A DNA stretch of 43,985 bases, from positions 1 through 43,985 of the forward strand of contig DAOLDN010000001.1 in assembly GCA_035327385.1 (NCBI GenBank). The letters are read 5' to 3'. The stretch is from Verrucomicrobiota bacterium. GTDB taxonomy: Bacteria; Verrucomicrobiota; Verrucomicrobiia; Limisphaerales; JADLHS01. The notes under the pieces are model-generated. The model did no database searches. It was not told the origin of the DNA and worked only from the letters and a program-made list of their open reading frames with translations. Position 1 is the stretch's first letter; the number at the start of each line of letters is the position of its first letter. The translations under genes and the position numbers were made by a program. Positions 8,531-42,230 of the stretch are shown here, piece by piece.

Positions 8531-9003
8531 AGAAGCCGGGCCTCTATCTTGAAACCTCGATTGTGAGTTATCTCACCGCGAGACCGGCGAAAGATTTGAA
8601 CACGGCGGCGCACCAACAGATTACGGTGGAGTGGTGGGACACGAAGCGGAAGGGTTTCGACATCTACATCTCGAACGTGGTGGTGCGGGAGGCGGCTGCG
8701 GGTGATGCGGAAGTTGCGCAACGACGGTTAAAGATTTTGAAACCACTGCCGTTATTGCCGATCAACCGCGAGGTAGTCGCGCTCGCCCGAAAGTTTGGCA
8801 AGTTGGGCTGCGTGCCAGCGAAGGCCGCAGACGACGCTCTGCACATCGCGCTGGCGGCAGTGCATGGCGTACATTTTCTACTGACGTGGAACTGCACGCA
8901 CATCAACAACGTGGCGACGATTGATGAGATTCGGGAAGTTTGTGAGAATCATGGCTATGCATGTCCGGTCATTTGCACCCCGGACGAGTTGATTCGAATT
9001 TGA
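8527..9003 (+). CDS. PIN-domain (VapC-like) protein
   Basis: The ATG overlaps the nuoE TGA (ATGA). LYLETSIVSYL, a central acidic stretch, and DDALHIALAAVHGVHFLLTWNCTH resemble the PIN fold. The upstream part of the track ORF (8185-8526) is an out-of-frame overlap of nuoE. Confidence 0.65.
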   Translation: MKKPGLYLETSIVSYLTARPAKDLNTAAHQQITVEWWDTKRKGFDIYISNVVVREAAAGDAEVAQRRLKILKPLPLLPINREVVALARKFGKLGCVPAKAADDALHIALAAVHGVHFLLTWNCTHINNVATIDEIREVCENHGYACPVICTPDELIRI

Positions 9004-9006
9004 GTT

Positions 9007-9222
9007 ATGAAAGATCCAATTATTGCAGAGCTTCGTAAGATCCGCGATGCGCATGCTGCGAAGTTCAACTATGACTTCGATGCCATCGCTGCCGACTGGT
9101 TTAAGCAGGAGGCTGCTGCCCGGCGTGCTGGCCAAAAGTTTGTGGACTTGTCCGCCAAGCGAAAGCCGCGCCCGCGTCATCGTTCGGTTACGGTGAAGTC
9201 CAGCAAGGGGCGCAAAGCGTGA
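9007..9222 (+). CDS. small basic-tailed protein, putative partner of the PIN protein
   Basis: 71 aa, starting 3 nt after the PIN gene. MKDPIIAELRKIRDAHAAKFNYDFDAIAADW followed by a Lys/Arg-rich tail. Confidence 0.5.
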   Translation: MKDPIIAELRKIRDAHAAKFNYDFDAIAADWFKQEAAARRAGQKFVDLSAKRKPRPRHRSVTVKSSKGRKA

Positions 9223-9378: not shown

Positions 9379-10803
9379 ATGCCGCAAGAGTTCAAACTCA
9401 TCCTGAAGCACGCCGACCAGCCGGGTTACACCCCCGACATCGAATGCTATTTGCGGCACGGCGGCTATGACGCGCTCAAGAAGGCACTCGCGATCCAGCC
9501 TAAGGATTTGGCTGACGGCAAGAAAGCGTCGCCGCAGGAACAGATTCGCGATGACGTGAAGCTCTCCGGCTTGCGCGGTCGCGGCGGTGCGGGTTTCTCG
9601 TGCGGACTCAAGTGGAGCTTCGTGGATCGTCGCAGCGGCAAGCCCATTTACCTGATCTGCAACGCCGACGAATCCGAGCCCGGCACGTTCAAGGATCGTC
9701 AGATCATCCACAAAGATCCGCATCAGCTCATCGAGGGCATGATTATCTCGTGCTTCGCGAACGACGTGAAGCTTGCCTACATCTACATCCGCGGCGAAAT
9801 GCCGAAGGGAGCAAAGTTGCTGAACGCGGCTTTGGCCGAAGCGCGCGCGAAAAATTTTCTCGGAAAAAACATTCTCGGCAGCGGTTACGATCTGGAGATT
9901 CATGTGCATCGCGGCGCGGGGGCTTACATCTGCGGCGAGGAGACTGGCCTGATCGAATCGCTCGAAGGCAAGCGGCCTTATCCGCGCATCAAGCCGCCGT
10001 ATTTCCCGGCGGTGCTTGGGCTCTACATGTGCCCGACCATCGTCAACAACGTCGAGACGCTCTGCAACGTGAAGCACATCGTCGCGATGGGCGGCGCGGA
10101 GTTCGCCAAGCTCGGCACGCCGAACAACACCGGCACGCGCATCGTGAGTTTGAGCGGTCAGGTGAAACGCCCCGGCTATTACGAAATCGAAGTCGGCAAG
10201 GTCACGCTCGGCCAGTTGATCAACGATGCGAATTTCGGCGGCGGCTTGCGCGATGGTCGCAAGCTCAAGGCGATTATTCCCGGCGGCTCGTCCTCGAAGA
10301 TTTTGAAAGCGAGCGAGAAATTCAAACTCAAGCGCAAGGTGGACGGCAAGGACGTTGAAATTGAAACCGACGTGCTGGATTTGCCCTACGATTTTGATTC
10401 GCTCATGGCGGCGGGCACGATGTCTGGTTCGAGCGCGATCATCGTCATGGACGACAGCGTGGACATCGTCGAAGCGCTGGCGAATCTCAGTGAATTTTAC
10501 GCGCACGAAAGCTGCGGCCAATGCACGCCGTGCCGCGAAGGTTCGCTTTGGATGAGCAAGACGTTGCATCGCCTCACGCACGGTCACGGTCGCAAGGGCG
10601 ACGCGGATTATCTCGAGAAGATCGCGAACAACATCCCCGGCGGCCGCACGATCTGCGCGTTCGGCGAAGCGTGTTCGTGGCCGGTGCAAAGTTTCGTCGC
10701 CAAATTCCGGGACGATTTCGTCGCGAAAGGCGCAGCGGACGAAGAGCGCAACAAGCAGGCCACGCCCGCGAAGGAAAAGAATTTAGCCGCAGCCGCACAC
10801 TGA
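9379..10803 (+). CDS. nuoF: NADH-quinone oxidoreductase subunit F
   Basis: Matching stretches are GRGGAGFSCGLKW, GAGAYICGEETGLIESLEGKRPYPR and ESCGQCTPCREG. Confidence 0.95.
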   Translation: MPQEFKLILKHADQPGYTPDIECYLRHGGYDALKKALAIQPKDLADGKKASPQEQIRDDVKLSGLRGRGGAGFSCGLKWSFVDRRSGKPIYLICNADESEPGTFKDRQIIHKDPHQLIEGMIISCFANDVKLAYIYIRGEMPKGAKLLNAALAEARAKNFLGKNILGSGYDLEIHVHRGAGAYICGEETGLIESLEGKRPYPRIKPPYFPAVLGLYMCPTIVNNVETLCNVKHIVAMGGAEFAKLGTPNNTGTRIVSLSGQVKRPGYYEIEVGKVTLGQLINDANFGGGLRDGRKLKAIIPGGSSSKILKASEKFKLKRKVDGKDVEIETDVLDLPYDFDSLMAAGTMSGSSAIIVMDDSVDIVEALANLSEFYAHESCGQCTPCREGSLWMSKTLHRLTHGHGRKGDADYLEKIANNIPGGRTICAFGEACSWPVQSFVAKFRDDFVAKGAADEERNKQATPAKEKNLAAAAH

Positions 10804-15014: not shown

Positions 15015-15557
15015 ATGATCGTCAAACGCAAACCATTGAATCTCGCGGAGCGGCTTTATTTGCCGGCCATCATCGGCGGCTTCAAAGTCACGCTGCGCCA
15101 TCTCTTCAAAAAGAAGGTGACGATGCAGTATCCCGAAGAGAAATGGGTCGTGCCCGAAGGTTATCGCGGCGCGCCATATCTCGTGAAGGATCAGGAAGGC
15201 AGCACCAAGTGCGTGAGCTGCCAGCTTTGCGAATTCGTCTGTCCGCCGAAAGCCATCAAAATTACGCCGCCCGGTCCAGCAGGCCAACTCGCGGATCGCC
15301 CGAACGCGGAGAAGATGCCAAAGGAATTCGAGATCAACATGCTGCGGTGCATCTTCTGCGGCTTCTGCCAGGAAGTCTGCCCCGAGGAAGCGATCTTCCT
15401 GCAAAAAGATTATTCGCTCACCGGCACGAGCCGCGCGGAGATGATTTACAACAAAGAAAAACTCCTCGCCCTCGGCGGCACACACGCGGGCGTCCAGAAA
15501 TGGAAGCACAAAGCGGAAGAAGCCAAGGCGCAGGAAAGTTTCCCGGTGAAAGTGTGA
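15015..15557 (+). CDS. nuoI: NADH-quinone oxidoreductase subunit I
   Basis: Two 4Fe-4S motifs, CVSCQLCEFVCP and CIFCGFCQEVCP. Confidence 0.95.
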   Translation: MIVKRKPLNLAERLYLPAIIGGFKVTLRHLFKKKVTMQYPEEKWVVPEGYRGAPYLVKDQEGSTKCVSCQLCEFVCPPKAIKITPPGPAGQLADRPNAEKMPKEFEINMLRCIFCGFCQEVCPEEAIFLQKDYSLTGTSRAEMIYNKEKLLALGGTHAGVQKWKHKAEEAKAQESFPVKV

Positions 15558-15559
15558 CG

Positions 15560-15694
15560 ATGAAGCTCCAAACACCAACATCCAACATCCAGGGAAGCAC
15601 CAAGCTTCAAGCTCCAATCGAGGCGCGCGGCGGTATTGGTGTTTGGGATTTGGATGTTCTCTGGAGCTTGGAGCTTGGAGCTTGGAATTTTTAG
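15560..15694 (+). repeat. family A heptamer palindrome, copy 2 (44-codon bridging ORF)
   Basis: ATG 15560 lies 2 nt after the nuoI TGA. The TAG at 15692-15694 lies 1 nt before the nuoJ ATG. Contains a (CCAACAT) array, CCAGGGAA...TTCTCTGG, and (GGAGCTT)3. Confidence 0.85.
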
Positions 15695-16714: not shown

Positions 16715-17020
16715 ATGAATGTCGGCCTTGAACATTATTTAGTGGTCAGCGCGCTGTTGTTTGCGCTGGGCCTGCTCGGCGTCATCGTGCGGCGCAATCT
16801 CATCGTGATTTACATGTCGCTGGAGTTGATGCTCAATTCGGCGAATCTCGCGCTCGTCTCTTTTTCGCGGTTCAACGACAACCTCAACGGCCAGGTGATG
16901 GTGTTCTTCATCATCACCGTGGCGGCGGCGGAAGTGGCGGTGGGCCTGGCGCTGATCGTGGCGCTGTATCGCAAACGCCGGTCGGCACATGTTGAAGACC
17001 TGACGAGCATGAAACTTTGA
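16715..17020 (+). CDS. nuoK: NADH-quinone oxidoreductase subunit K
   Basis: Start trimmed to MNVGLEHYLVVSALLFALGLLGV. 101 aa, ND4L-like. Confidence 0.92.
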   Translation: MNVGLEHYLVVSALLFALGLLGVIVRRNLIVIYMSLELMLNSANLALVSFSRFNDNLNGQVMVFFIITVAAAEVAVGLALIVALYRKRRSAHVEDLTSMKL

Positions 17021-17021
17021 A

Positions 17022-17162
17022 ATGAAGCTCCAAGCACCAACATCCAACATCCAGAGAAGCACCAAGTCTCAAGCTCCAATCGGGGCGAGCGGCGATTTTG
17101 GTGTTTGGGATTTGGATGTTCTCTGGAGCTTTGAGCTTGGAGCTTGGAATTTTCCGGAATGA
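17022..17162 (+). repeat. family A heptamer palindrome, copy 3 (46-codon bridging ORF)
   Basis: ATG 17022 lies 1 nt after the nuoK TGA. The TGA at 17160-17162 overlaps the nuoL ATG 17159 (ATGA). Confidence 0.85.
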
Positions 17163-34151: not shown

Positions 34152-35492
34152 ATGAAGCAACAATTCAAAGTCATCGAAGGTTCAATCACGGCGCCGCAAG
34201 GCTTCCTCGCCAGCGGAGTGTTTTGCGACATCAAACGCCTGGGCACGGGCAAAGGGTCGCAGAAAGGAAAGAAACGCGACCTCGCACTCATCGTTTCCGA
34301 AGTGCCGGCGACCGTCGCGGGCATGTTCACGACCAATCAGGTCTGTGCCGCGCCTGTGAAAGTGTGTGCTGAACGCGTGAAGAAAGGCGTGGCGCAGGCG
34401 ATTGTCGTGAACTCCGGCAATGCCAACGCCTGCACCGGCCGACAGGGCATGAAGGACGCACGCGAAATGACGGCGCAGGTCGCGAAGATTTTTCACATGC
34501 CGGAACAACATGTTCTGGTCGGCAGCACAGGACGCATCGGAGTGACGATGCCGATGGACAATGTGAGATCGGGCATCCGCCACGCCGCGCAGTTACTGGG
34601 CAACGATGCCGCTCATGCCACCGAAACCGCTGAAGCCATCATGACCAGCGATTCGCGCCAGAAACAGATTGCCGTTGAATTCAAATTGGGTGGCAAAACG
34701 GTGCGCATTGGCGGCATTTGCAAGGGCGCAGGAATGATCCAACCGGGAATGTCCGCCACCGGCGCACGACCGGCTGCGTTGCCGCACGGTGGATTGCACG
34801 CGACGATGCTGGGTTTTATCACCACGGACGCCGCGATTGAGGCAAAAGCGTTGCAGGCCGCGTTGCAGGAAGCCGTGGCGAACAGTTTCAACCGCATCAC
34901 CGTGGATGGCGACATGAGCACGAACGACACGGTGCTGGTGCTGGCGAATGGGCTGGCGGGGAATGAAAACATCCAACATCCAACATCCAACATCCAACAC
35001 CGAACGTTTCAGGCTGCGCTCACGTATGTCTGTCTGGAACTGGCGAAGATGATTGTACGCGATGGCGAAGGCGTGCATCGCGTGGTGACTGTGCGCGTGA
35101 ACGGCGCAAAGACGATTCAAGATGCCGATGCCGCCGCGCGTGCGGTGGCGAACAGCGCGCTAGTAAAAACAAGCTGGCACGGCGGCGACCCGAACTGGGG
35201 GCGCATCATTGACGCCATCGGTTATTCTCCGGCAACTGTCGTGGAGGAGAAGATTGACATCGGCTATTCCGCGCCCGGCAGCCGGAAGGTTCTATGGAGC
35301 TTGAAACGCGGCCAGCCGACGAAGGCGACGTTCAAGCAACTGTGTCTCGCCGTTGCTCCCAAGGAATTCGAACTGCGCATCAACCTTAACCTCGGCAAGG
35401 CCGCCGCCGTCATGTATGCAGCAGATTTGACCGAGGAATACGTGGACTTTAACAAAGGCGACGTGACTGATCCGACGACACTGGGAGGCTGA
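34152..35492 (+). CDS. argJ: bifunctional ornithine acetyltransferase / N-acetylglutamate synthase
   Basis: Start trimmed to MKQQFKVIEGSITAPQGFLASG. Matching stretches are the autoprocessing site HATMLGFITTDA, NRITVDGDMSTNDT and IVRDGEG. Confidence 0.9.
   Translation: MKQQFKVIEGSITAPQGFLASGVFCDIKRLGTGKGSQKGKKRDLALIVSEVPATVAGMFTTNQVCAAPVKVCAERVKKGVAQAIVVNSGNANACTGRQGMKDAREMTAQVAKIFHMPEQHVLVGSTGRIGVTMPMDNVRSGIRHAAQLLGNDAAHATETAEAIMTSDSRQKQIAVEFKLGGKTVRIGGICKGAGMIQPGMSATGARPAALPHGGLHATMLGFITTDAAIEAKALQAALQEAVANSFNRITVDGDMSTNDTVLVLANGLAGNENIQHPTSNIQHRTFQAALTYVCLELAKMIVRDGEGVHRVVTVRVNGAKTIQDADAAARAVANSALVKTSWHGGDPNWGRIIDAIGYSPATVVEEKIDIGYSAPGSRKVLWSLKRGQPTKATFKQLCLAVAPKEFELRINLNLGKAAAVMYAADLTEEYVDFNKGDVTDPTTLGG
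34970..34997 (+). repeat. (CATCCAA)x4 heptamer array inside argJ
   Basis: Four perfect tandem heptamers, translated in frame as NIQHPTSNIQH. The heptamer is the same one as in the left arms of family A. Confidence 0.9.
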
Positions 35493-35627: not shown

Positions 35628-36203
35628 ATGAACCTTTTCCTGCCAAAGCCACTTAGGGAAGCTCTTGAAAAGGGAGTTGGGTTTTTTATGGGCGAGGATT
35701 GCGAATGGAAATTCGAGCAAAAGGAATCGGCAGAGTTCATAGAGAAGATTGTGGGATGTCCTGTGTACGCCTTCGCCAACAATGGGTTTGGTGATTATTT
35801 GTTCCTGAAAAAGAGGCCGGACGGGGATGGATTTGGAGAGGATGTTTTTGAATTCTTTCACGAGGGACCGGAAATCAAGCGGATTACTGAAAATTTGGAG
35901 ACGCTGCTCGGATTGAAGGATCGCCCCGCGTCGGTAGATGTCTATCCAAAAGCCATCTACGAAACAGGAGAGTTGGTCCAGGTAGGAGATCGTGTTCAGG
36001 TCAAAGTGTGGGCAGAGTTTTGGAAGGGCTGGCAGGACGGACAGGTCGATTATGTCCCCGGAATCTCCAAGAAAAAGCTCAAGCACGAATACAACGGATT
36101 GAAGTGGGTTGCGATTAGATTCCGAAACGGGGAGATTTGCCCAGTGGTAGACCCCAAAAGCGGAAAACTTAGAAAGGTCAGATTTGTTGCACGGCACAGC
36201 TAG
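35628..36203 (+). CDS. hypothetical protein, N-terminal SMI1/KNR4 (SUKH)-like
   Basis: 191 aa with lower GC. YAFANNGFGDYLFLKKRPDG resembles SUKH immunity-protein motifs. It is flanked by family B arms (35494-35530 and 36279-36316). Confidence 0.45.
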   Translation: MNLFLPKPLREALEKGVGFFMGEDCEWKFEQKESAEFIEKIVGCPVYAFANNGFGDYLFLKKRPDGDGFGEDVFEFFHEGPEIKRITENLETLLGLKDRPASVDVYPKAIYETGELVQVGDRVQVKVWAEFWKGWQDGQVDYVPGISKKKLKHEYNGLKWVAIRFRNGEICPVVDPKSGKLRKVRFVARHS

Positions 36204-36328
36204 ACTGCAACCATCGCCGCCCGATCAGCCCGCGTTCTTAATTGTTCCCCCATTGCCCGCACAGTTCGTCCGCAATCAGAAGATCTGTGTTTTATCTATG
36301 TTCGTCTGCGGCTAACTTTTGGCACAAC

Positions 36329-36451
36329 GTGCATACCCTCATTGCCAAAGCCGCGACGTTGCTGGAAGCCTTGCCTTACTTTCAGCGTTTCCGCAACCAG
36401 AAGTTCGTCGTCAAATATGGTGGCTCGTTCATGGACTCGCCCGATGCTTGA
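36329..36451 (+). pseudogene. argB: relic of an argB 5' end (40 codons)
   Basis: [40 protein letters not shown] versus the intact ArgB N-terminus [40 protein letters not shown] at 41349. By my count about 94/120 nt are identical. Confidence 0.8.
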
Positions 36452-36453
36452 CT

Positions 36454-36468
36454 TCTATTGGCAATAGA
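36454..36468 (+). promoter_or_regulatory. palindromic candidate operator upstream of parDE
   Basis: TCTATTG-G-CAATAGA is a perfect 7-bp inverted repeat immediately after a TTGACT hexamer (36448-36453), 17 nt upstream of the parD ATG. Confidence 0.4.
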
Positions 36469-36484
36469 TGGAAATTCGCCCCGC

Positions 36485-36751
36485 ATGAGCCACGCGCTGA
36501 CACCCTACTACAAGCAGATCATCCGTCGGCAGATCGCCACCGGACGCTTCAATAATGAGAGCGAGGTTATCCGTCATTCACTGCGGCTGGCTGATTCGTT
36601 GGAGCGGGCCTCAGGACCATTGGGCCGCGCTTTCGCCGGACGCGAGGAGCTTGAGGAATTACTGCTGGAAGGGCTGGCGAGTGGCGACGGCAAACGGATG
36701 ACTCCAGCCCGGAAAAAGCAAATTTACAAGCTGGCGCTGGAGGAATCGTGA
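36485..36751 (+). CDS. parD: ParD-family antitoxin
   Basis: Start trimmed to MSHALTPYYKQIIRRQIATGRFNNESEVIRHSLRL, the ribbon-helix-helix ParD pattern. Confidence 0.8.
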   Translation: MSHALTPYYKQIIRRQIATGRFNNESEVIRHSLRLADSLERASGPLGRAFAGREELEELLLEGLASGDGKRMTPARKKQIYKLALEES

Positions 36752-37071
36752 GCGGCTATCATGCGCTGCCCAAGGCGGATGAGGATTTGATCGAGGGCGC
36801 ACGATGGATTCGCGCGGATAATCCGCAGGCCGCACGTCGGTTTCTGGGTGCGGCATTCGAGGCGTTTGACCGGCTGGCGGAATTTCCTGAGTCCGGCCCC
36901 ATGGCGCGGCTGAAAAACCGGCGACTGGCAAATATTCGTTTTTGCGTTTTGCCGCCTCCGTTTAACCGGTGGGTGATTTTTTATCGCATCATCGGTGGCG
37001 AGGTTGAAATCAATCGCCTGATTTACGGCACGCAAAACTGGCGCGGCAAACCAGGTTCATTTTTTATCTGA
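36748..37071 (+). CDS. parE: ParE/RelE-family toxin
   Basis: GTGA overlap with parD. A..DL......I....P.AA.RF...F.....L.EFPE.G.......R....PP....IFYRI....VEI.R.I.G. Confidence 0.8.
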   Translation: MSGYHALPKADEDLIEGARWIRADNPQAARRFLGAAFEAFDRLAEFPESGPMARLKNRRLANIRFCVLPPPFNRWVIFYRIIGGEVEINRLIYGTQNWRGKPGSFFI

Positions 37072-37191
37072 AGGGCTGTTGGCTGCAAGGCGATGGCGCG
37101 GTTGCGTGTTGCAGTGACGAACTGACTGAGAAGCGAAAAGATTTCAACAAAACTGCGGCGTCCGACATTATTCGGCAGTCAGCTAAATCAT

Positions 37192-38106
37192 ATGACTACT
37201 ATCACACGAGCCATCCTGGGTGGCGTTACCACAGTCGTTCTGATGACAGCACAAATCATGGCCGCTGAAACGAACGGTGTCATCGCGCCCGGTGCGAAAC
37301 TGGAGAAACTGGCGGGTGATTTCAAGTTCACCGAAGGTCCGACGTGCGACAAGGACGGCAACGTTTTCTTCACCGATCAGCCGAACAATCGGATCATGAA
37401 ATGGAGCGTGGACGGCAAGCTTTCCACGTTCCTCGAACCCGCCGGGCGCGCCAACGGAATGTTCTTTGATACGCAGGGCAATCTCATTGCCTGTGCCGAC
37501 GAAAAGACGGAGTTGTGGTCCATCACACCCGACGGGAAGCACACGGTGCTGGCGAAGGAATACGAGGGCAAGGCTCTCAACGGTCCGAACGATGTCTGGG
37601 TGCGGGCCGACGGCAGCCTGTTTTTCACTGATCCGTTCTACAAACGTCCGTGGTGGGATTACAACGATCCGCCACAGGGAACGCAGCAGGTGTATTTCCT
37701 GAGCGCCGACCGCAAAACGCTCAAGCGTGTGACCACCGATCTGGAGCAACCCAACGGCATCATCGGCACGCCGGACGGCAAAACATTGTTCGTTGCGGAC
37801 ATCAAGGCGAAGAAAACTTATGCCTACGACATCCAGCCCGACGGCGCGCTGGCGAACAAACGTCTCTTTTGTGAACTGGGTTCGGACGGCATGACATTGG
37901 ACACTGAAGGCAATCTCTATCTCACAGGCCGTGGAGTGTCGGTGTTCGACAAGACTGGAAAGAAGATCGGACAAATTGACGTGCCGGAAGGCTGGACGGC
38001 GAATGTCAGTTTCGGCGGTGCGGACCGTCGCACGCTGTTCATCACAGCGAGCAAGGGGCTATATTCCATCCGCACGAAATTCCCCGGCGCAAACGCCACC
38101 AAGTAA
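37192..38106 (+). CDS. SMP-30/gluconolactonase/LRE-family protein (secreted)
   Basis: Signal peptide. Matching stretches are FTEGPTCDKDGNVFFTDQPNNRI, NGPNDVWV, PNGIIGTPDGKTLFVAD and PEGWTANVSFGG. Confidence 0.85.
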   Translation: MTTITRAILGGVTTVVLMTAQIMAAETNGVIAPGAKLEKLAGDFKFTEGPTCDKDGNVFFTDQPNNRIMKWSVDGKLSTFLEPAGRANGMFFDTQGNLIACADEKTELWSITPDGKHTVLAKEYEGKALNGPNDVWVRADGSLFFTDPFYKRPWWDYNDPPQGTQQVYFLSADRKTLKRVTTDLEQPNGIIGTPDGKTLFVADIKAKKTYAYDIQPDGALANKRLFCELGSDGMTLDTEGNLYLTGRGVSVFDKTGKKIGQIDVPEGWTANVSFGGADRRTLFITASKGLYSIRTKFPGANATK

Positions 38107-38151
38107 TCCCACAAATATGGCGGCGCTCCGCAGGCACGCCGCCACGACGGT

Positions 38152-39576
38152 TCACAGGTTGTAGAATTGCTCCCAATCCTTGCGGGGCGGCGCGTCGGAG
38201 AGCAGTTCGTTGGCGGCCTTGTGATTGGTGATTTGTCTGGTCTCCCGGTCGAACAGCACTTTTGCGTTCACGCGCTGGGCGATGATGCCGATGGCCATCG
38301 CCTGGCACAACGGGCCGGCGACCGAGAACGGCGACCGGCATTTTTCCTCGCCCTTGCAGGCTTTCAAAAAGTTCGCAAAGTGATTGGACGGACTTTTCGG
38401 AACGGCAGGCAGTCTGGATTCCATGTCCTTCGCCTTGGATTCAGGAATGATCTTCAGCGTGGTGGCGTGCGAGCCGCCCTTGAAAACGAGGTCTTCGCCG
38501 TAAATGACTTTTCCCGGCGGATATTTCTTGGTGTCCAGTTTGCCGGTGCTTGGCGGCGGGATGTTGCCATCCACGACGGCGTCGCCAAATGCTTCAGGCA
38601 ACGGCGCGAGGTTGTTTTGTCCGTCATACCAGGTGAGTTCCACGGGCGGCATCGAGCCGCGTTGGGGGAATTTGAATGCCAGCGTGGAGGCTTGCGGAAA
38701 AATATAAGGGCTGTAGCCCTCAATGAGAACGGGATCAACCTCGGTGGGCAGGCCGAGGTCGAGGAATTCGTGGGCCGTGTCGAAGATGTGCGCGCCCCAG
38801 TCGCCGAGCGCTCCGTTGCCGTAGTCGTACCACGAGCGCCATTCTCCGTTGATGTAACCCTTGTTGTAGGGATGGAACGCGCCGGTGGCGACCCAGCAAT
38901 CCCAGTCGAGCGTTTCAGGCAGCGGCTCTTGCGGGAGGAAACCGGTGACTGTCATCCCGTGCCAGCGGCGCGGGTTATTCATGAAGGCAGTGATGCGCGT
39001 CACGTTCTTGATGACGCCGGCCTCGACCCATGTTTTGAACTGGAAATAGTTCGCCTCAGAATGGCCCTGGTTGCCCATCTGGCAGGCGACCTTGTATTTC
39101 TTCTCGGCCTGCATCAGCAGTTCGATCTGGCGGAAGGAATGTGCCATGGGTTTCTCGACATAGACGTGTTTGCCGAGTGACATGGCGAGAATGGTGATGG
39201 GGAAATGGGAAAAATCCGGCGTGCCCACGCACACGGCGTCAATCTGGTTTCCCAGCTTGTCGAACATCTTCCGGAAATCCTGGAATCGGGGAACATCGGG
39301 ATAGTCCTTGAGGATGCCGAGCGTTTGTTTGGCTCCCATGTCCACGTCGCAGAGGGCGACGATGTTGGCGAGGCCGGTTTTTTGGAAGTCCCGGATGATC
39401 TCCGCCCCTCGATTGCCGATGCCGCAGCAGGCGAGATTGACCTTGCCCGTTGATTCCGCGCCAAACGAGAAGCGCGGCAGGAACGCGGCGGAAGCTCCGG
39501 CGGCCAGCACGCCTTTGAGAAACGCGCGACGGTGCATGGGATTGGTGAACGAGTCGGTGCGGTTTTGGTGTTTCAT
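38152..39576 (-). CDS. Gfo/Idh/MocA-family oxidoreductase with TAT signal
   Basis: Start trimmed to MKHQNRTDSFTNPMHRRAFLKGVLAAGASAAF, with SD GGAGA 7 nt upstream. Also CCGIGNRG Rossmann and EKP. Confidence 0.9.
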   Translation of the reverse strand: MKHQNRTDSFTNPMHRRAFLKGVLAAGASAAFLPRFSFGAESTGKVNLACCGIGNRGAEIIRDFQKTGLANIVALCDVDMGAKQTLGILKDYPDVPRFQDFRKMFDKLGNQIDAVCVGTPDFSHFPITILAMSLGKHVYVEKPMAHSFRQIELLMQAEKKYKVACQMGNQGHSEANYFQFKTWVEAGVIKNVTRITAFMNNPRRWHGMTVTGFLPQEPLPETLDWDCWVATGAFHPYNKGYINGEWRSWYDYGNGALGDWGAHIFDTAHEFLDLGLPTEVDPVLIEGYSPYIFPQASTLAFKFPQRGSMPPVELTWYDGQNNLAPLPEAFGDAVVDGNIPPPSTGKLDTKKYPPGKVIYGEDLVFKGGSHATTLKIIPESKAKDMESRLPAVPKSPSNHFANFLKACKGEEKCRSPFSVAGPLCQAMAIGIIAQRVNAKVLFDRETRQITNHKAANELLSDAPPRKDWEQFYNL

Positions 39577-39599
39577 GAGATGTTCTCCGATATGGCAGT

Positions 39600-41030
39600 T
39601 CAAGGATTGGGAGGCACGCGCAGTTTGACGTTACGGAACGAAACCTCGTCGCCGTGGTCCTGCAACAGGATGTGTCCGTCCGGCCATTCGCCGAAGCCGG
39701 GGATGCTGTGATACTTGCTCCGGGCGACGAATTCGCGGAACGCTGGTGTGCCACGGTCGTATTCCAAAATCTTTTGGCCGTTGAGCCAGTGTTCGATGTG
39801 ATTGCCCTGGACAAGGATGCGCGCTGTGTTCCATTCGCCGATGGGATTTGGTTTTTTGTCCGGGGCGGCGGTGATGAGGTCATACAGCGAACCAAGGGTG
39901 CGATTGCCGTCGCGGCCCTGTTTGGCGTCGGGGTGACGTTTATCGTCGAGGATCTGGTATTCCAGTCCGATGGCCGAGCCGGTTGTGGTCTTTGCTCCTG
40001 TGCCGGTGATGGGATCGAGGTTCGGCTGGCAGAAATACTTGATGCCGCTGTTGGCACCGGGTGTGATTTTGAAGTCCAGAACGAGTTCAAAGCTGGAGAA
40101 ACGTTCGCGGGTGACGATGTCTCCGCCCGCTGTGGATTCTCCTCCGCCGCTGGCCAGAACGGTGAGCGCACCGTCGCGGATGACCCATCCGTGCGACGGA
40201 AATTTTTCCAGTTTGGCGCCGCGCCAGCCGTCTGTGGTATGGCCATCCCACAACAAACGCCAGCCGTCGGATTTCTCAGATTCGGTCAGTGTGTTTAGGC
40301 CCGTTGCCGCGTCGGGCAATTCAATGATCTTCAAATTCCGCCAGCGCACTTGAGTGCCGTCTTTTGGTTTCTCGTTGCCGATGCTGTGGACCTGCAACGC
40401 GATGAAGCCGCGTGGTGTCACATCGTCCTTTATGTCCGCGCAACGTGTGCCGTTGAGCCAGGTTTTGATCGAATCACCTTTTGCCTCGACGCGAACCTGA
40501 TTCCAGTCGTCGGGTTTGAAGATTTTCATGCCCTGTTCGCTGAATGTTTTTGCCTCCGGGCTTTTGTCGCCACCTGATGGAAAGAGCCAGCCGCGCCGCG
40601 ATTCGTCGTAAATGCCGCCGGTCCACATGCGCTTGCGCGCCACGTCCGGGTCAATCTCGACCTGGTAGCCATGCACGCGGCCCGCAGGGATGGTGATCGT
40701 CTTTCCGTTCCAATCAAAGTTGGTGGCCGTGTCAAAACACTCGCTGCGAATCTGCACGCCGGAGTTCAGTTTTGGGTCCACCTTGAATTCGTATTCGAGG
40801 ATGAAATCACCGAAAGTCTGTTCGGTGCAGAGAAAACTGTTCGGTGTGTTCATCACGGACGTGCCCACGATTTCGTTGCCTTCAACCGCGTAAAGCGCCT
40901 TGCCTCCGCGTTGCACCCAGCCGGAAAGGTCCTTGCCATTGAACAGTTCACGACCGCCATCGGCTGCGAACGACGTCGCGATGCCGAACAGGAGGACGGT
41001 GACGGCGTGCGGAAAAGATTTGAGGCTCAT
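39600..41030 (-). CDS. tandem DUF1080 (3-keto-disaccharide hydrolase-like) protein, secreted
   Basis: Signal peptide, then two copies of the LFNGKDLSGW ... NSG.Q.R....E.QILD ... F.N...R pattern. Confidence 0.85.
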   Translation of the reverse strand: MSLKSFPHAVTVLLFGIATSFAADGGRELFNGKDLSGWVQRGGKALYAVEGNEIVGTSVMNTPNSFLCTEQTFGDFILEYEFKVDPKLNSGVQIRSECFDTATNFDWNGKTITIPAGRVHGYQVEIDPDVARKRMWTGGIYDESRRGWLFPSGGDKSPEAKTFSEQGMKIFKPDDWNQVRVEAKGDSIKTWLNGTRCADIKDDVTPRGFIALQVHSIGNEKPKDGTQVRWRNLKIIELPDAATGLNTLTESEKSDGWRLLWDGHTTDGWRGAKLEKFPSHGWVIRDGALTVLASGGGESTAGGDIVTRERFSSFELVLDFKITPGANSGIKYFCQPNLDPITGTGAKTTTGSAIGLEYQILDDKRHPDAKQGRDGNRTLGSLYDLITAAPDKKPNPIGEWNTARILVQGNHIEHWLNGQKILEYDRGTPAFREFVARSKYHSIPGFGEWPDGHILLQDHGDEVSFRNVKLRVPPNP

Positions 41031-41348
41031 AAGCGTGAATTCGCGCCGGTTGTGATTGCGGCGACAACCTTAATGACATGCTTGCATCGCTGCAAATTCA
41101 TTATTTGTGCGACAGCTTCGTCCGGCGACTGACACCGCCTCCAGCAGCGCCTGCATGCCGGGGGAAATCGCTGAAACGTCGAATGTCTGTCTCCGCGCAA
41201 GCGTGCTGTGGACGGGGACTGTCCGCGCTCCGGCGGCAGTGCCCGATTTTGTCCACCGGGCGAATCCACCGGACACTGATCTGGAACTCTTGCCGCAAGT
41301 TGTGGTTTGAAATCCGCCCGGCGTCTGTGGCTAAATGCTCCCCGCGTT

Positions 41349-42230
41349 ATGCAAGACCTTATCGCAAAAGCCGCCACACTGCTGGAGGCGCTGCCCTACA
41401 TCCAGCGTTTCCGCACCCAGACGTTCGTCGTCAAGTATGGCGGATCGTTCATGGATTCGCCAGACCCCTCCATCCGCAACGGCGTGGCGCGCGACGTCGT
41501 GTTTCTTGAGGCTGTCGGAATCAATCCCATCGTGGTTCACGGCGGTGGCAAGGCCATCACTCGCGCCATGGAGGCCGCCGGATTGAAAGCTCAATTCATC
41601 CAAGGCCAGCGCGTCACGGACGAGGCGACCGCGCTGGTGGTGGACCGCGTGCTGTCGCGCGAGATCAATCCCGAAATCGTCAAGACCATCGAATCGTTGG
41701 GCGGCAAGGCGCGCGGGTTCAGCGGCGCGGACATCTTCAAGTGCCGGAAACTGCTGGTGGACGACAAGGAAAACCCCGGAAAGAAGATTGACGTCGGTTA
41801 CGTGGGCGAAGTCGTTGAGGTGAACACCGACCCGTTGCGCCAGTGCATCCGTCGCGGAGTGACGCCGGTCATCAGCCCGGTGGCGCTTGGCGAGGACGGA
41901 ATGATCTACAACTGCAACGCCGACGTTGGCGCCGCGCAAACGGCCATTGCCCTGAAAGCGAAACGTCTTGTGTTCATGAGCGACGTGCCGGGGTTGTTGT
42001 CCGATCCGAAGAATCCCGACTCGCTGATTCCACATCTCAAGACCGAAGCCGTGGCCGAATTGAAGGCGTTGGGCGTGATTGACAAGGGAATGATCCCCAA
42101 GGTGGACAGCGCCGTGGCCGCCATCAAGACCGGCGTGGAAAAAGTCTCCTTCGTGGACGGCCGCGTGCAACATTCCGTGCTGCTGGAGATTTTCACCGAT
42201 GAAGGTGTGGGCACGGAAGTGGTCTTGTGA
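41349..42230 (+). CDS. argB: acetylglutamate kinase
   Basis: Start trimmed to [21 protein letters not shown]. Matching stretches are VVKYGGS, VVHGGG and NCNADVGAAQTAIAL. Confidence 0.93.
   Translation: MQDLIAKAATLLEALPYIQRFRTQTFVVKYGGSFMDSPDPSIRNGVARDVVFLEAVGINPIVVHGGGKAITRAMEAAGLKAQFIQGQRVTDEATALVVDRVLSREINPEIVKTIESLGGKARGFSGADIFKCRKLLVDDKENPGKKIDVGYVGEVVEVNTDPLRQCIRRGVTPVISPVALGEDGMIYNCNADVGAAQTAIALKAKRLVFMSDVPGLLSDPKNPDSLIPHLKTEAVAELKALGVIDKGMIPKVDSAVAAIKTGVEKVSFVDGRVQHSVLLEIFTDEGVGTEVVL

Follow-up and report, generated by a model that had tools for sequence, protein, structure and literature searches.

A partial argB copy adjoins a ParDE cassette

We analysed a contig of 43,985 bp, taken in its entirety and referred to here as the window, from a 777-contig metagenome-assembled genome (MAG) of a Verrucomicrobiota bacterium of the Pedosphaera/Limisphaerales group. 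The window holds two copies of the start of argB. One opens the intact gene, and the other, a relic of 40 codons whose origin is the subject of this work, lies upstream beside a small cassette made up of a ParD-family gene followed by a ParE-family gene. Gene order was established from open reading frames (ORFs), Pfam matches and an independent gene call, and runs from argJ through a SUKH-like gene, the relic, parD, parE, an SGL gene, a Gfo/Idh/MocA gene and a DUF1080 gene to argB (Table 1). Pfam agrees with the ParD, ParE, SGL, Gfo/Idh/MocA and DUF1080 content named in an earlier reading of this DNA, the original prediction, and, as that reading also stated, no integrase was found by Pfam among the ORFs of 36.3-41.3 kb. 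The parD and parE genes overlap by 4 nt and both score above the Pfam cut-offs, and their family membership predicts a type II ParD/ParE toxin-antitoxin module. Genomes, loci and contigs are numbered below with the prefixes G, L and C, G000 being the window's own MAG.

The relic aligns without gaps to positions 41349-41471 at the start of intact argB. The two stretches are identical at 95 of 123 nt and 33 of 40 aa, and their differences fall 6:4:18 over the three codon positions. The repeat, whose second copy takes in the first 117 nt of intact argB, reaches 26 nt 5' of the start codons (36303-36446 versus 41322-41465, 109/143 identical) and includes GTCTGCGGCTAA (36304-36315) and GTCTGTGGCTAA (41323-41334). 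It thus forms a 144-bp direct repeat, 77-79% identical overall, that flanks a 5,019-bp interval. The match lies well above chance, with E = 2e-22 in a BLAST search of the genome against itself and E = 7.9e-15 in a translated search. The longest identical runs between the copies are ~11-13 nt by eye and lie within conserved codons, and none was marked as an attachment (att) core. The TGA that ends the relic frame (36449-36451) sits within the TTGACT (36448-36453), which is followed by the palindrome TCTATTG-G-CAATAGA (36454-36468) and by the parD ATG at 36485. Reading the sequence confirmed the prediction that the frame stops where this block starts, and the block before parD looks like a promoter/operator. 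The alignment shows the relic as a diverged and apparently decaying copy of the argB-upstream motif and codons 1-40.

To characterise the divergence we counted substitutions by the Nei-Gojobori method. Relic and resident copy differ by 17 synonymous changes (pS 0.62) and 7 non-synonymous changes (pN 0.078), giving a pN/pS of 0.13. The non-synonymous share is therefore 7/24, compared to the ~64% expected for an in-situ duplication with a neutrally decaying copy (binomial P = 0.0006). Because the divergence is mostly silent, the relic is unlikely to be a fresh in-situ duplication. Changes were polarised with 40 outgroup sequences. Those private to the relic are distributed 4:2:3 over the codon positions, at ~0.08 per site, which fits recent neutral decay. 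Those private to the resident copy are distributed 0:0:9, all at third positions. Together with the binomial test, these two distributions support the view, already put forward in the original prediction, that the copies are xenologous and evolved in separate lineages, for the most part as coding sequence.

Table 1. Features of the argJ-argB region (positions in the window) and further gene-end repeat pairs of the same MAG (contig:positions)
Feature	Position	Strand	Basis or remark
argJ, ancestral upstream neighbour of argB	34152-35492	+	Pfam ArgJ, E = 1e-132; gene call
SUKH/SMI1-like hitchhiker gene	35628-36203	+	weak Pfam SMI1_KNR4 match, E = 9e-4
Copy of conserved argB-upstream motif before the relic, TCTGTGTTTTATC...GTCTGCGGCTAAC	36270-36328	+	alignment A1
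argB 5' relic: GTG start, codons 1-40, TGA	36329-36451	+	argB-derived part ends at 36445-36447
Left end of ParDE cassette: TTGACT, palindrome TCTATTGGCAATAGA, GAAATT	36448-36484	+	sequence reading
parD antitoxin, 88 aa	36485-36751	+	Pfam ParD_antitoxin, 28.7 bits (cut-off 21); gene call
parE toxin, 107 aa	36748-37071	+	Pfam ParE_toxin, 48.6 bits (cut-off 23)
Unique junction after parE stop	37072-37191	+	resident-type block begins here
SGL gluconolactonase-like gene	37192-38106	+	Pfam
Gfo/Idh/MocA gene	38152-39576	-	Pfam
DUF1080/3-keto-disaccharide hydrolase gene	39600-41030	-	Pfam
Resident copy of argB-upstream motif, TTGAAATCC...GTCTGTGGCTAAAT	41288-41348	+	alignment A1
Intact argB, 293 aa	41349-42230	+	Pfam AA_kinase; 88% identical to G019 argB
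Further repeat pairs 1-6	C124:2037-2948, C94:4422-5354, C49:598-1442, C392:74-858, C283:3076-3830, C144:2495-3117		MAG self-comparison
Further repeat pairs 7-12	C450:307-957, C626:436-1359, C335:223-1274, C612:258-1169, C136:4129-5164, C150:5833-6513		MAG self-comparison

Related genomes share the joint between relic and cassette

We scanned 301 genomes of the order with the first 57 ArgB residues as query. Extra partial argB copies were detected in G028, G063, G185, G192, G262 and G265. In the translated search, 38 of 41 genomes had a single argB start, and a short relic in G026 surfaced only in a local search. G192 and G262 (loci L123 and L120), which belong to another family, have the order argJ, TPR gene, argB relic, parD, parE, argB. 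Positions 36337-37067 of the window are colinear with the relic and ParDE of these two genomes (68% nt identity; 72% aa identity for ParE). In all three, the joint lies at argB codon 40 (GAYGC) and continues as TTGACTyCyATTGGCrATrGAT (alignment A2). The codon-40 joint, GAYGC running directly into TTGAC, is common to the window, G192/G262, L124, L125, L117 and L146, and in the six genomes other than the window intact argB begins 4-5 nt after parE. Because the joint is shared with genomes in which parE abuts argB directly, the relic evidently belongs with the ParDE cassette alone and not with a 4.9-kb unit.

A further scan was performed with a ParE alignment as query and one genome per species. 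It returned 17 close homologues, 66-82% identical to window ParE, 16 of which adjoin argJ and/or argB, compared to 0 of 19 distant homologues (49-58%). The block (GC)TTGAC(A/T)yCTATTGGsGATAGATGGArATT precedes parD in 17 loci. Two forms of the locus were observed. Type B (L120, L123, L124, L125, L117, L146 and L121) consists of an argB 5' relic, the cassette with its parE stop, 4-5 nt and the argB ATG; the relic is shortened in L117, and L146 keeps only ~12 nt of it. Type A (L111, L115 and L118) consists of the argJ stop, ~10 nt, the cassette with its parE stop, ~12 nt and ATGAGCGCGCCGAAGGAATTTGAACTGCAC, the last being a relic of the final ~45 argJ codons with an identical joint in all three loci. 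This argJ 3' relic (L111:2842-2949, L118:2841-2975, L115:1868-1978) opens with ATG, ATGAGCGCGCCGAAGGAA..., and could be translated, serving as a relay ORF through which coupling to the following gene is restored. The window has the left joint of type B, and the break in its right joint falls exactly at the parE stop. After parE (37072-37191) we found no second repeat and nothing similar to the start of argB or to the region upstream of it. In the related loci argJ and argB bound the cassette within ~50 nt. None of these loci has space for a recombinase gene and no integrase was found in any of them, and an integrase mechanism like that of e14 gains no support from this set.

The outer part of the relic is of the argB type of its host, namely the QRFR type in the window and the QKFSGE type in G192/G262 (alignment A2). 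In L124, the relic matches the resident copy at every one of its first 98 nt (98/98), and six differences are confined to the last 22 nt, beside the cassette. We read this mosaic relic as the mark of a crossover, or of gene conversion, within the repeat. ParE homologues in the same family were also found outside the argJ-argB locus, at the 3' end of mfd between repeats of 86-87 bp, in G022 and G023. In public records the contigs of the ParDE loci L114, L121, L130, L133 and L134 bear the names Bifidobacteriaceae (two), Bifidobacterium sp., Klebsiella sp. and Akkermansia muciniphila, and the cassette lies beside argJ in L114 and beside argB in L121. Of these names, at least Bifidobacteriaceae and Klebsiella seem to come from mislabelled MAG bins.

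The interval between the argB copies is composite

The original prediction took the relic as the mark of a ~4.9-kb island, comprising ParDE and the SGL, Gfo/Idh/MocA and DUF1080 genes, inserted at the argB start. It proposed a check for argJ-argB adjacency, and empty sites do exist: the two genes are directly adjacent in six relatives (G006, G032, G037, G033, G030 and G025). The order argJ-SGL-argB occurs in G035, G005 and G012. Among the argB genes most like that of the window (88% aa) are those of G019, GCA_964550825.1 and a JGI contig of P0009, and in all three SGL, Gfo and DUF1080 (- strand) precede argB, with relic and ParDE absent. The block directly follows argJ and a ThuA gene in G019 and GCA_964550825.1, and L102 likewise shows the SGL-Gfo-DUF1080 order before argB. 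In the JGI contig argJ and ThuA lie elsewhere, and the segment SGL-Gfo-HEAT-DUF1080-argB-MFS is inverted relative to argJ-AspAlEx-PhzF-argC, which reads as more evidence of a rearrangement-prone interval.

Composition was examined as GC content at third codon positions (GC3). SGL (0.71), Gfo (0.77) and DUF1080 (0.70) match the housekeeping genes of the window (0.70-0.79), while ParD (0.64), ParE (0.59) and the SUKH-like gene (0.56) are set apart. The GC profile of the interval is like that of its flanks and is low only in the SUKH region. The GC and codon-usage check suggested earlier thus singled out ParD and ParE, but not the remainder of the supposed island. The identities of the SGL, Gfo and DUF1080 proteins to those of relatives are in the range of nuoH, nuoL and argD. 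Since the block occurs in this order without the relic in relatives, has host-like GC3 and shows ordinary identities, the 4.9-kb interval appears to be composite and not an island. The block and the relic with ParDE each occur without the other in relatives, and SGL, Gfo and DUF1080 are best described as host-type genes rather than cassette cargo.

The dodecamer GTCTG[CT]GGCTAA before each argB copy, which had been taken for an arm of the island, belongs to a longer motif, AAAATCTGTGTTTCATCC-N10-TCTGTGGCTAAAT. This motif lies 20-50 nt before argB in G018, G011, G020, G013, G015, G003, G017 and G001 and is duplicated in none of them. In an alignment of the copy before the relic with these eight relatives and the resident copy (alignment A1), CTG.GGCTAA is invariant. 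Because the dodecamer is part of a motif kept in at least eight relatives with a single argB, we conclude that it is not an attachment arm. The motif may be a conserved element such as a promoter or an arginine-regulator operator. It was recorded at L037, L046, L052, L053, L061, L062, L064 and L007, and likewise before the G265 relic. A scan with an E. coli-type sigma-70 consensus detected no promoter ahead of parD or of either copy of argB.

Other gene-end relics in the MAG and at argB

Self-comparison of the MAG revealed at least 12 further two-copy direct repeats of 60-112 bp (Table 1). Their copies are 66-94% identical and 0.4-1 kb apart, and each pair consists of a true gene end and its relic. 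The duplicated ends, as read from translations with no family search, are those of moxR-like, fumarate hydratase, purM, hemC, exbD-like, groEL, nuoK, purQ, argG and ftsY genes; the genes of the C136 and C150 pairs received no identity from their translations. The cassettes between the copies encode MazF (three times), HicAB, a RelE/ParE-type protein, a YafQ-like protein, Uma2, ORF6N and a DUF6036 nucleotidyltransferase. Two inserts gave no Pfam match, and the insert of the groEL pair is a putative lipoprotein by reading alone. Pooled over 11 pairs, pS is 0.41, pN is 0.074 and dN/dS is 0.13, and no gene-end pair in the MAG is ≥95% identical. At C72:8957-10143 the 3' end of ftsY is present in triplicate (8957-9025, 9660-9728 and 10085-10143), with a Uma2 endonuclease gene and an ORF of 99 aa between the copies, as if two cassettes had been stacked in succession.

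Relics of the argB 5' end with other cargo were also found. The relic of G028 accompanies MNT-HEPN cargo, and all but one of its 10 differences from the resident copy are silent, a TCA/AGC serine switch among them. The relic of G026 accompanies an FkbM methyltransferase gene, and relics occur likewise in G014, G063, G185 and G265. In G014 (L050, contig C605), argJ-SGL-vapBC is followed by a decayed argB relic of ~30 codons, a Uma2 gene and hflX, and intact argB lies on another contig, after lgt-miaA. The G185 relic ends at codon ~40 with other DNA beyond it. Relic lengths vary by event and measure about 22, 30, 32, 40, 48 and 49 codons. G036 (L058) has the order argJ-vapBC-argB, in which the vapC stop touches the intact argB start.

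Two neighbouring features of the window were also recorded. The SUKH-like gene has a GC content of 0.48, with the low GC3 given above. It has 118 homologues in a protein collection drawn from public metagenomes and MAGs (44-81% identical to the window gene) and homologues at 18 loci in soil metagenomes, 15 of them at 66-78% identity. None of the homologues with context adjoins argJ or argB, the order argJ-SUKH-argB was not found, and no argJ 3' repeat was found around the gene in the window. It appears to be another itinerant small gene, since its neighbours differ in each context examined. A palindromic dispersed repeat (...CCAAGCTCCAA...GGAGCTTGGAGCTTGG...), of which the MAG holds >100 copies, lies at 15547-15691 and 17010-17153 in the nuo operon.

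Spread of the cassette through duplicated gene ends

We propose, with a probability of about 0.65, that a small ParDE cassette, which lacks a recombinase and spread as duplicated gene ends underwent homologous recombination, left the relic as its left-hand scar and was later parted from argB. With the same confidence, we propose that this ParDE cassette lineage is resident at the argJ-argB junction of numerous related soil Verrucomicrobia across Limisphaerales/Pedosphaerales (Verrucomicrobiota). Homologous recombination by the host would ferry the cassette between relatives. A cassette lying between two gene-end copies would enter a naive genome by an ordinary double crossover, as both copies can pair with the single target, and the inner joint would be inherited while the outer relic would be rebuilt from the recipient. 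Entry by double crossover would explain together the shared joints, the host-type relics and the silent-site divergence. New joints would be rare, each being made by one homologous crossover and one illegitimate join, and examples would be those at argB codon 40, at argJ codon ~455 and between parE and SGL in the window.

In the window, a further event of crossover plus illegitimate join would have broken the right joint exactly at the parE stop. As a result, a segment argJ-SUKH-motif-relic-ParDE would now abut a cassette-free, G019-like segment SGL-Gfo-DUF1080-motif-argB. Either half may have been the imported one. The tests on argJ lean weakly towards import of the 3' part of argJ with SUKH, motif, relic and ParDE into a G019-like chromosome; alternatively, SGL-Gfo-DUF1080-motif and the 5' part of argB may have been imported into a type B locus. 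Sliding identity was weak or negative as to which half of the locus was imported. A weak mosaic signal was seen in argJ, whose 5' and middle parts are nearer to G019/L102 and whose last ~150-300 nt are nearer to G006/G005.

Several points weigh against the proposed spread by homologous recombination. The breakpoint tests by maximum chi-square are weak for argJ (p = 0.013-0.037, uncorrected) and negative for argB (p > 0.1). The phylogeny suggested with the original prediction was built, from both copies and 40 relatives, and an approximately unbiased (AU) test was made, but the 117-nt tree lacks resolution for the two copies, and the AU test does not reject them as sisters (p = 0.43). Ranking both copies by identity against relatives likewise gave no native or foreign signal. 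We found no genome from this genus or species, and the nearest argB (91%) lies on a 2.6-kb contig. The nearest relatives are ~80% identical at the nucleotide level. Homologous recombination at 80-90% identity over ~120 bp is inefficient in the systems studied. Finally, clean cassette edges and one joint in several families would equally fit a site-specific enzyme acting in trans.

There is a small chance that such an enzyme, a site-specific recombinase encoded elsewhere, moves ParDE as a cis-mobilisable or integron-like cassette, with a core at argB codon ~40 and, in the sister form, at argJ codon ~455. The edges are conserved as well as clean and the joint lies at one nucleotide across families, the G185 relic also stops at codon ~40 with different DNA after it, and many different cassettes lie exactly at gene ends in the MAG. 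However, at least 12 target genes in one genome would demand many specificities, the argB relic lengths differ between events, and the crossover in L124 lies inside the repeat and not at a fixed core. Beyond the gene-end copy, no core common to cassette and target was seen.

Insertion of the whole ~4.9-kb island at the argB start, bringing a replacement 5' end as e14 does, with the integrase since lost or the island acquired by homologous recombination from a donor that carried it, is also improbable. The direct repeat does bracket exactly the 5,019-bp interval, the copies are xenologous, empty argJ-argB sites exist, and one variant of our own proposal has SGL-Gfo-DUF1080-motif-argB as the imported half. 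However, the same relic-ParDE joint occurs where ParE abuts argB and the SGL block is absent, and the closest relatives have SGL-Gfo-DUF1080-argB without relic or ParDE. In addition, the block is host-like in GC3 and ordinary in its similarity to relatives, neither the interval nor the related loci hold an integrase, and the supposed arms belong to a conserved upstream motif.

Very improbable is a long target duplication of the argB start, made in situ on DNA insertion, whose upstream copy then slowly decayed. Such a model has been published for restriction-modification genes with flanking repeats of 46-420 bp (PMC2853133), and the changes private to the relic do look neutral. For the window, however, it is rejected statistically by the non-synonymous share, and the resident copy carries 9 private silent changes compared to ~3 expected from the decay rate of the relic. 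The pooled dN/dS of the 11 pairs, the lack of any pair in the genome at ≥95% identity and the serine switch in the G028 pair also speak against it. A duplication associated with an inversion was rejected because the repeats are direct. An assembly chimera of two strains is scarcely credible, even for a fragmented MAG of 777 contigs, as two further assemblies (a 141-kb contig from ENA and a Logan contig) carry an identical 9-12.6 kb, making three from different pipelines, and independent genomes share the architecture.

We tentatively extend the proposed homologous route beyond ParDE, although for this extension we think the odds are against rather than in favour. In these bacteria, small toxin-antitoxin and nuclease cassettes might form a recombinase-free mobile system, in which a duplicated housekeeping-gene end, with one copy borne by the cassette, would serve as the attachment site, with RecA-dependent entry into relatives, loop-out between the two copies and long fidelity to a locus. 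This would explain the 12 or more other relics in the MAG. The ParDE lineage would be an example of such a system with two alternative arms, argB 5' and argJ 3'.

It has long been asked how toxin-antitoxin modules of chromosomes spread in the absence of transposases and integrases. The argJ-argB locus provides a traceable example, in which a joint with a housekeeping gene is conserved across several families and the outer relic is re-templated in each host. This pattern makes homologous recombination through duplicated gene ends a mechanism that can be tested in the laboratory. Gene-end relics of this kind should not be taken for island or att boundaries, and pseudo-copies of gene starts and gene ends can be used as markers of past cassette traffic in MAGs.

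Comparison with known systems

A literature search, limited in scope, found no account of toxin-antitoxin cassettes tied to gene-end duplications. What is new here is one cassette lineage tied to one locus with inherited joints, its two alternative arms, the mosaic relic of L124 and the silent-site statistics. The elements e14 and phage 21 at icd of E. coli encode an integrase and recombine at a short core. As in those elements, the insert in the window lies within a gene end, a diverged end linked to the insert keeps the gene intact, and the displaced original persists as a pseudo-copy. In contrast to them, the window has no integrase, the cassette measures 0.65 kb, the duplication covers a 5' end and the motif upstream of it, and the relic is partly rebuilt from the host gene. 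The comparison drawn with e14 at icd in the original prediction thus fits the outcome, a replacement end being supplied, and not the mechanism.

Homology-facilitated illegitimate recombination, defined in PMC3240628, has been proposed for the effector-immunity arrays of type VI secretion systems and for C-terminal displacement in Rhs and contact-dependent inhibition (CDI) proteins (PMC5361080). In those cases and in our proposal, a conserved stretch beside the incoming module serves as the homologous anchor, the other end is joined illegitimately and remnants persist. Those systems concern the variable tips of toxin genes, whereas the anchors at the argJ-argB locus are housekeeping gene ends, argB 5' and argJ 3', and a joint, once made, would be inherited and spread.

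Cis-mobilisable elements (CIMEs) are left by integrative elements at the 3' end of a target gene, and have the att sites of a known integrase family and one target. The cassette resembles them as a small recombinase-free element bounded by repeats that include a gene end. It differs in that many targets are used in one genome and in that no att core or integrase was identified.

Among published patterns, the nearest is the 'insertion with long target duplication' of restriction-modification units (Nobusato et al. 2000; Furuta, Abe and Kobayashi 2010, PMC2853133). There, repeats of >30 bp that are 93-100% identical were read as target duplications, and a life cycle that uses the repeats was proposed (PMC2853133). 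In common with those units, the window has an addiction-type unit without a mobility gene between direct repeats of >30 bp, and the repeat is single-copy at the same place in insert-free genomes. The window copies differ in being 77-79% identical with coding-type divergence (pN/pS 0.13), an exception to such diverged repeats being L124 with its identical outer 98 nt. The cargo also differs, being a toxin-antitoxin pair, of which one lineage is tied to one locus across the order.

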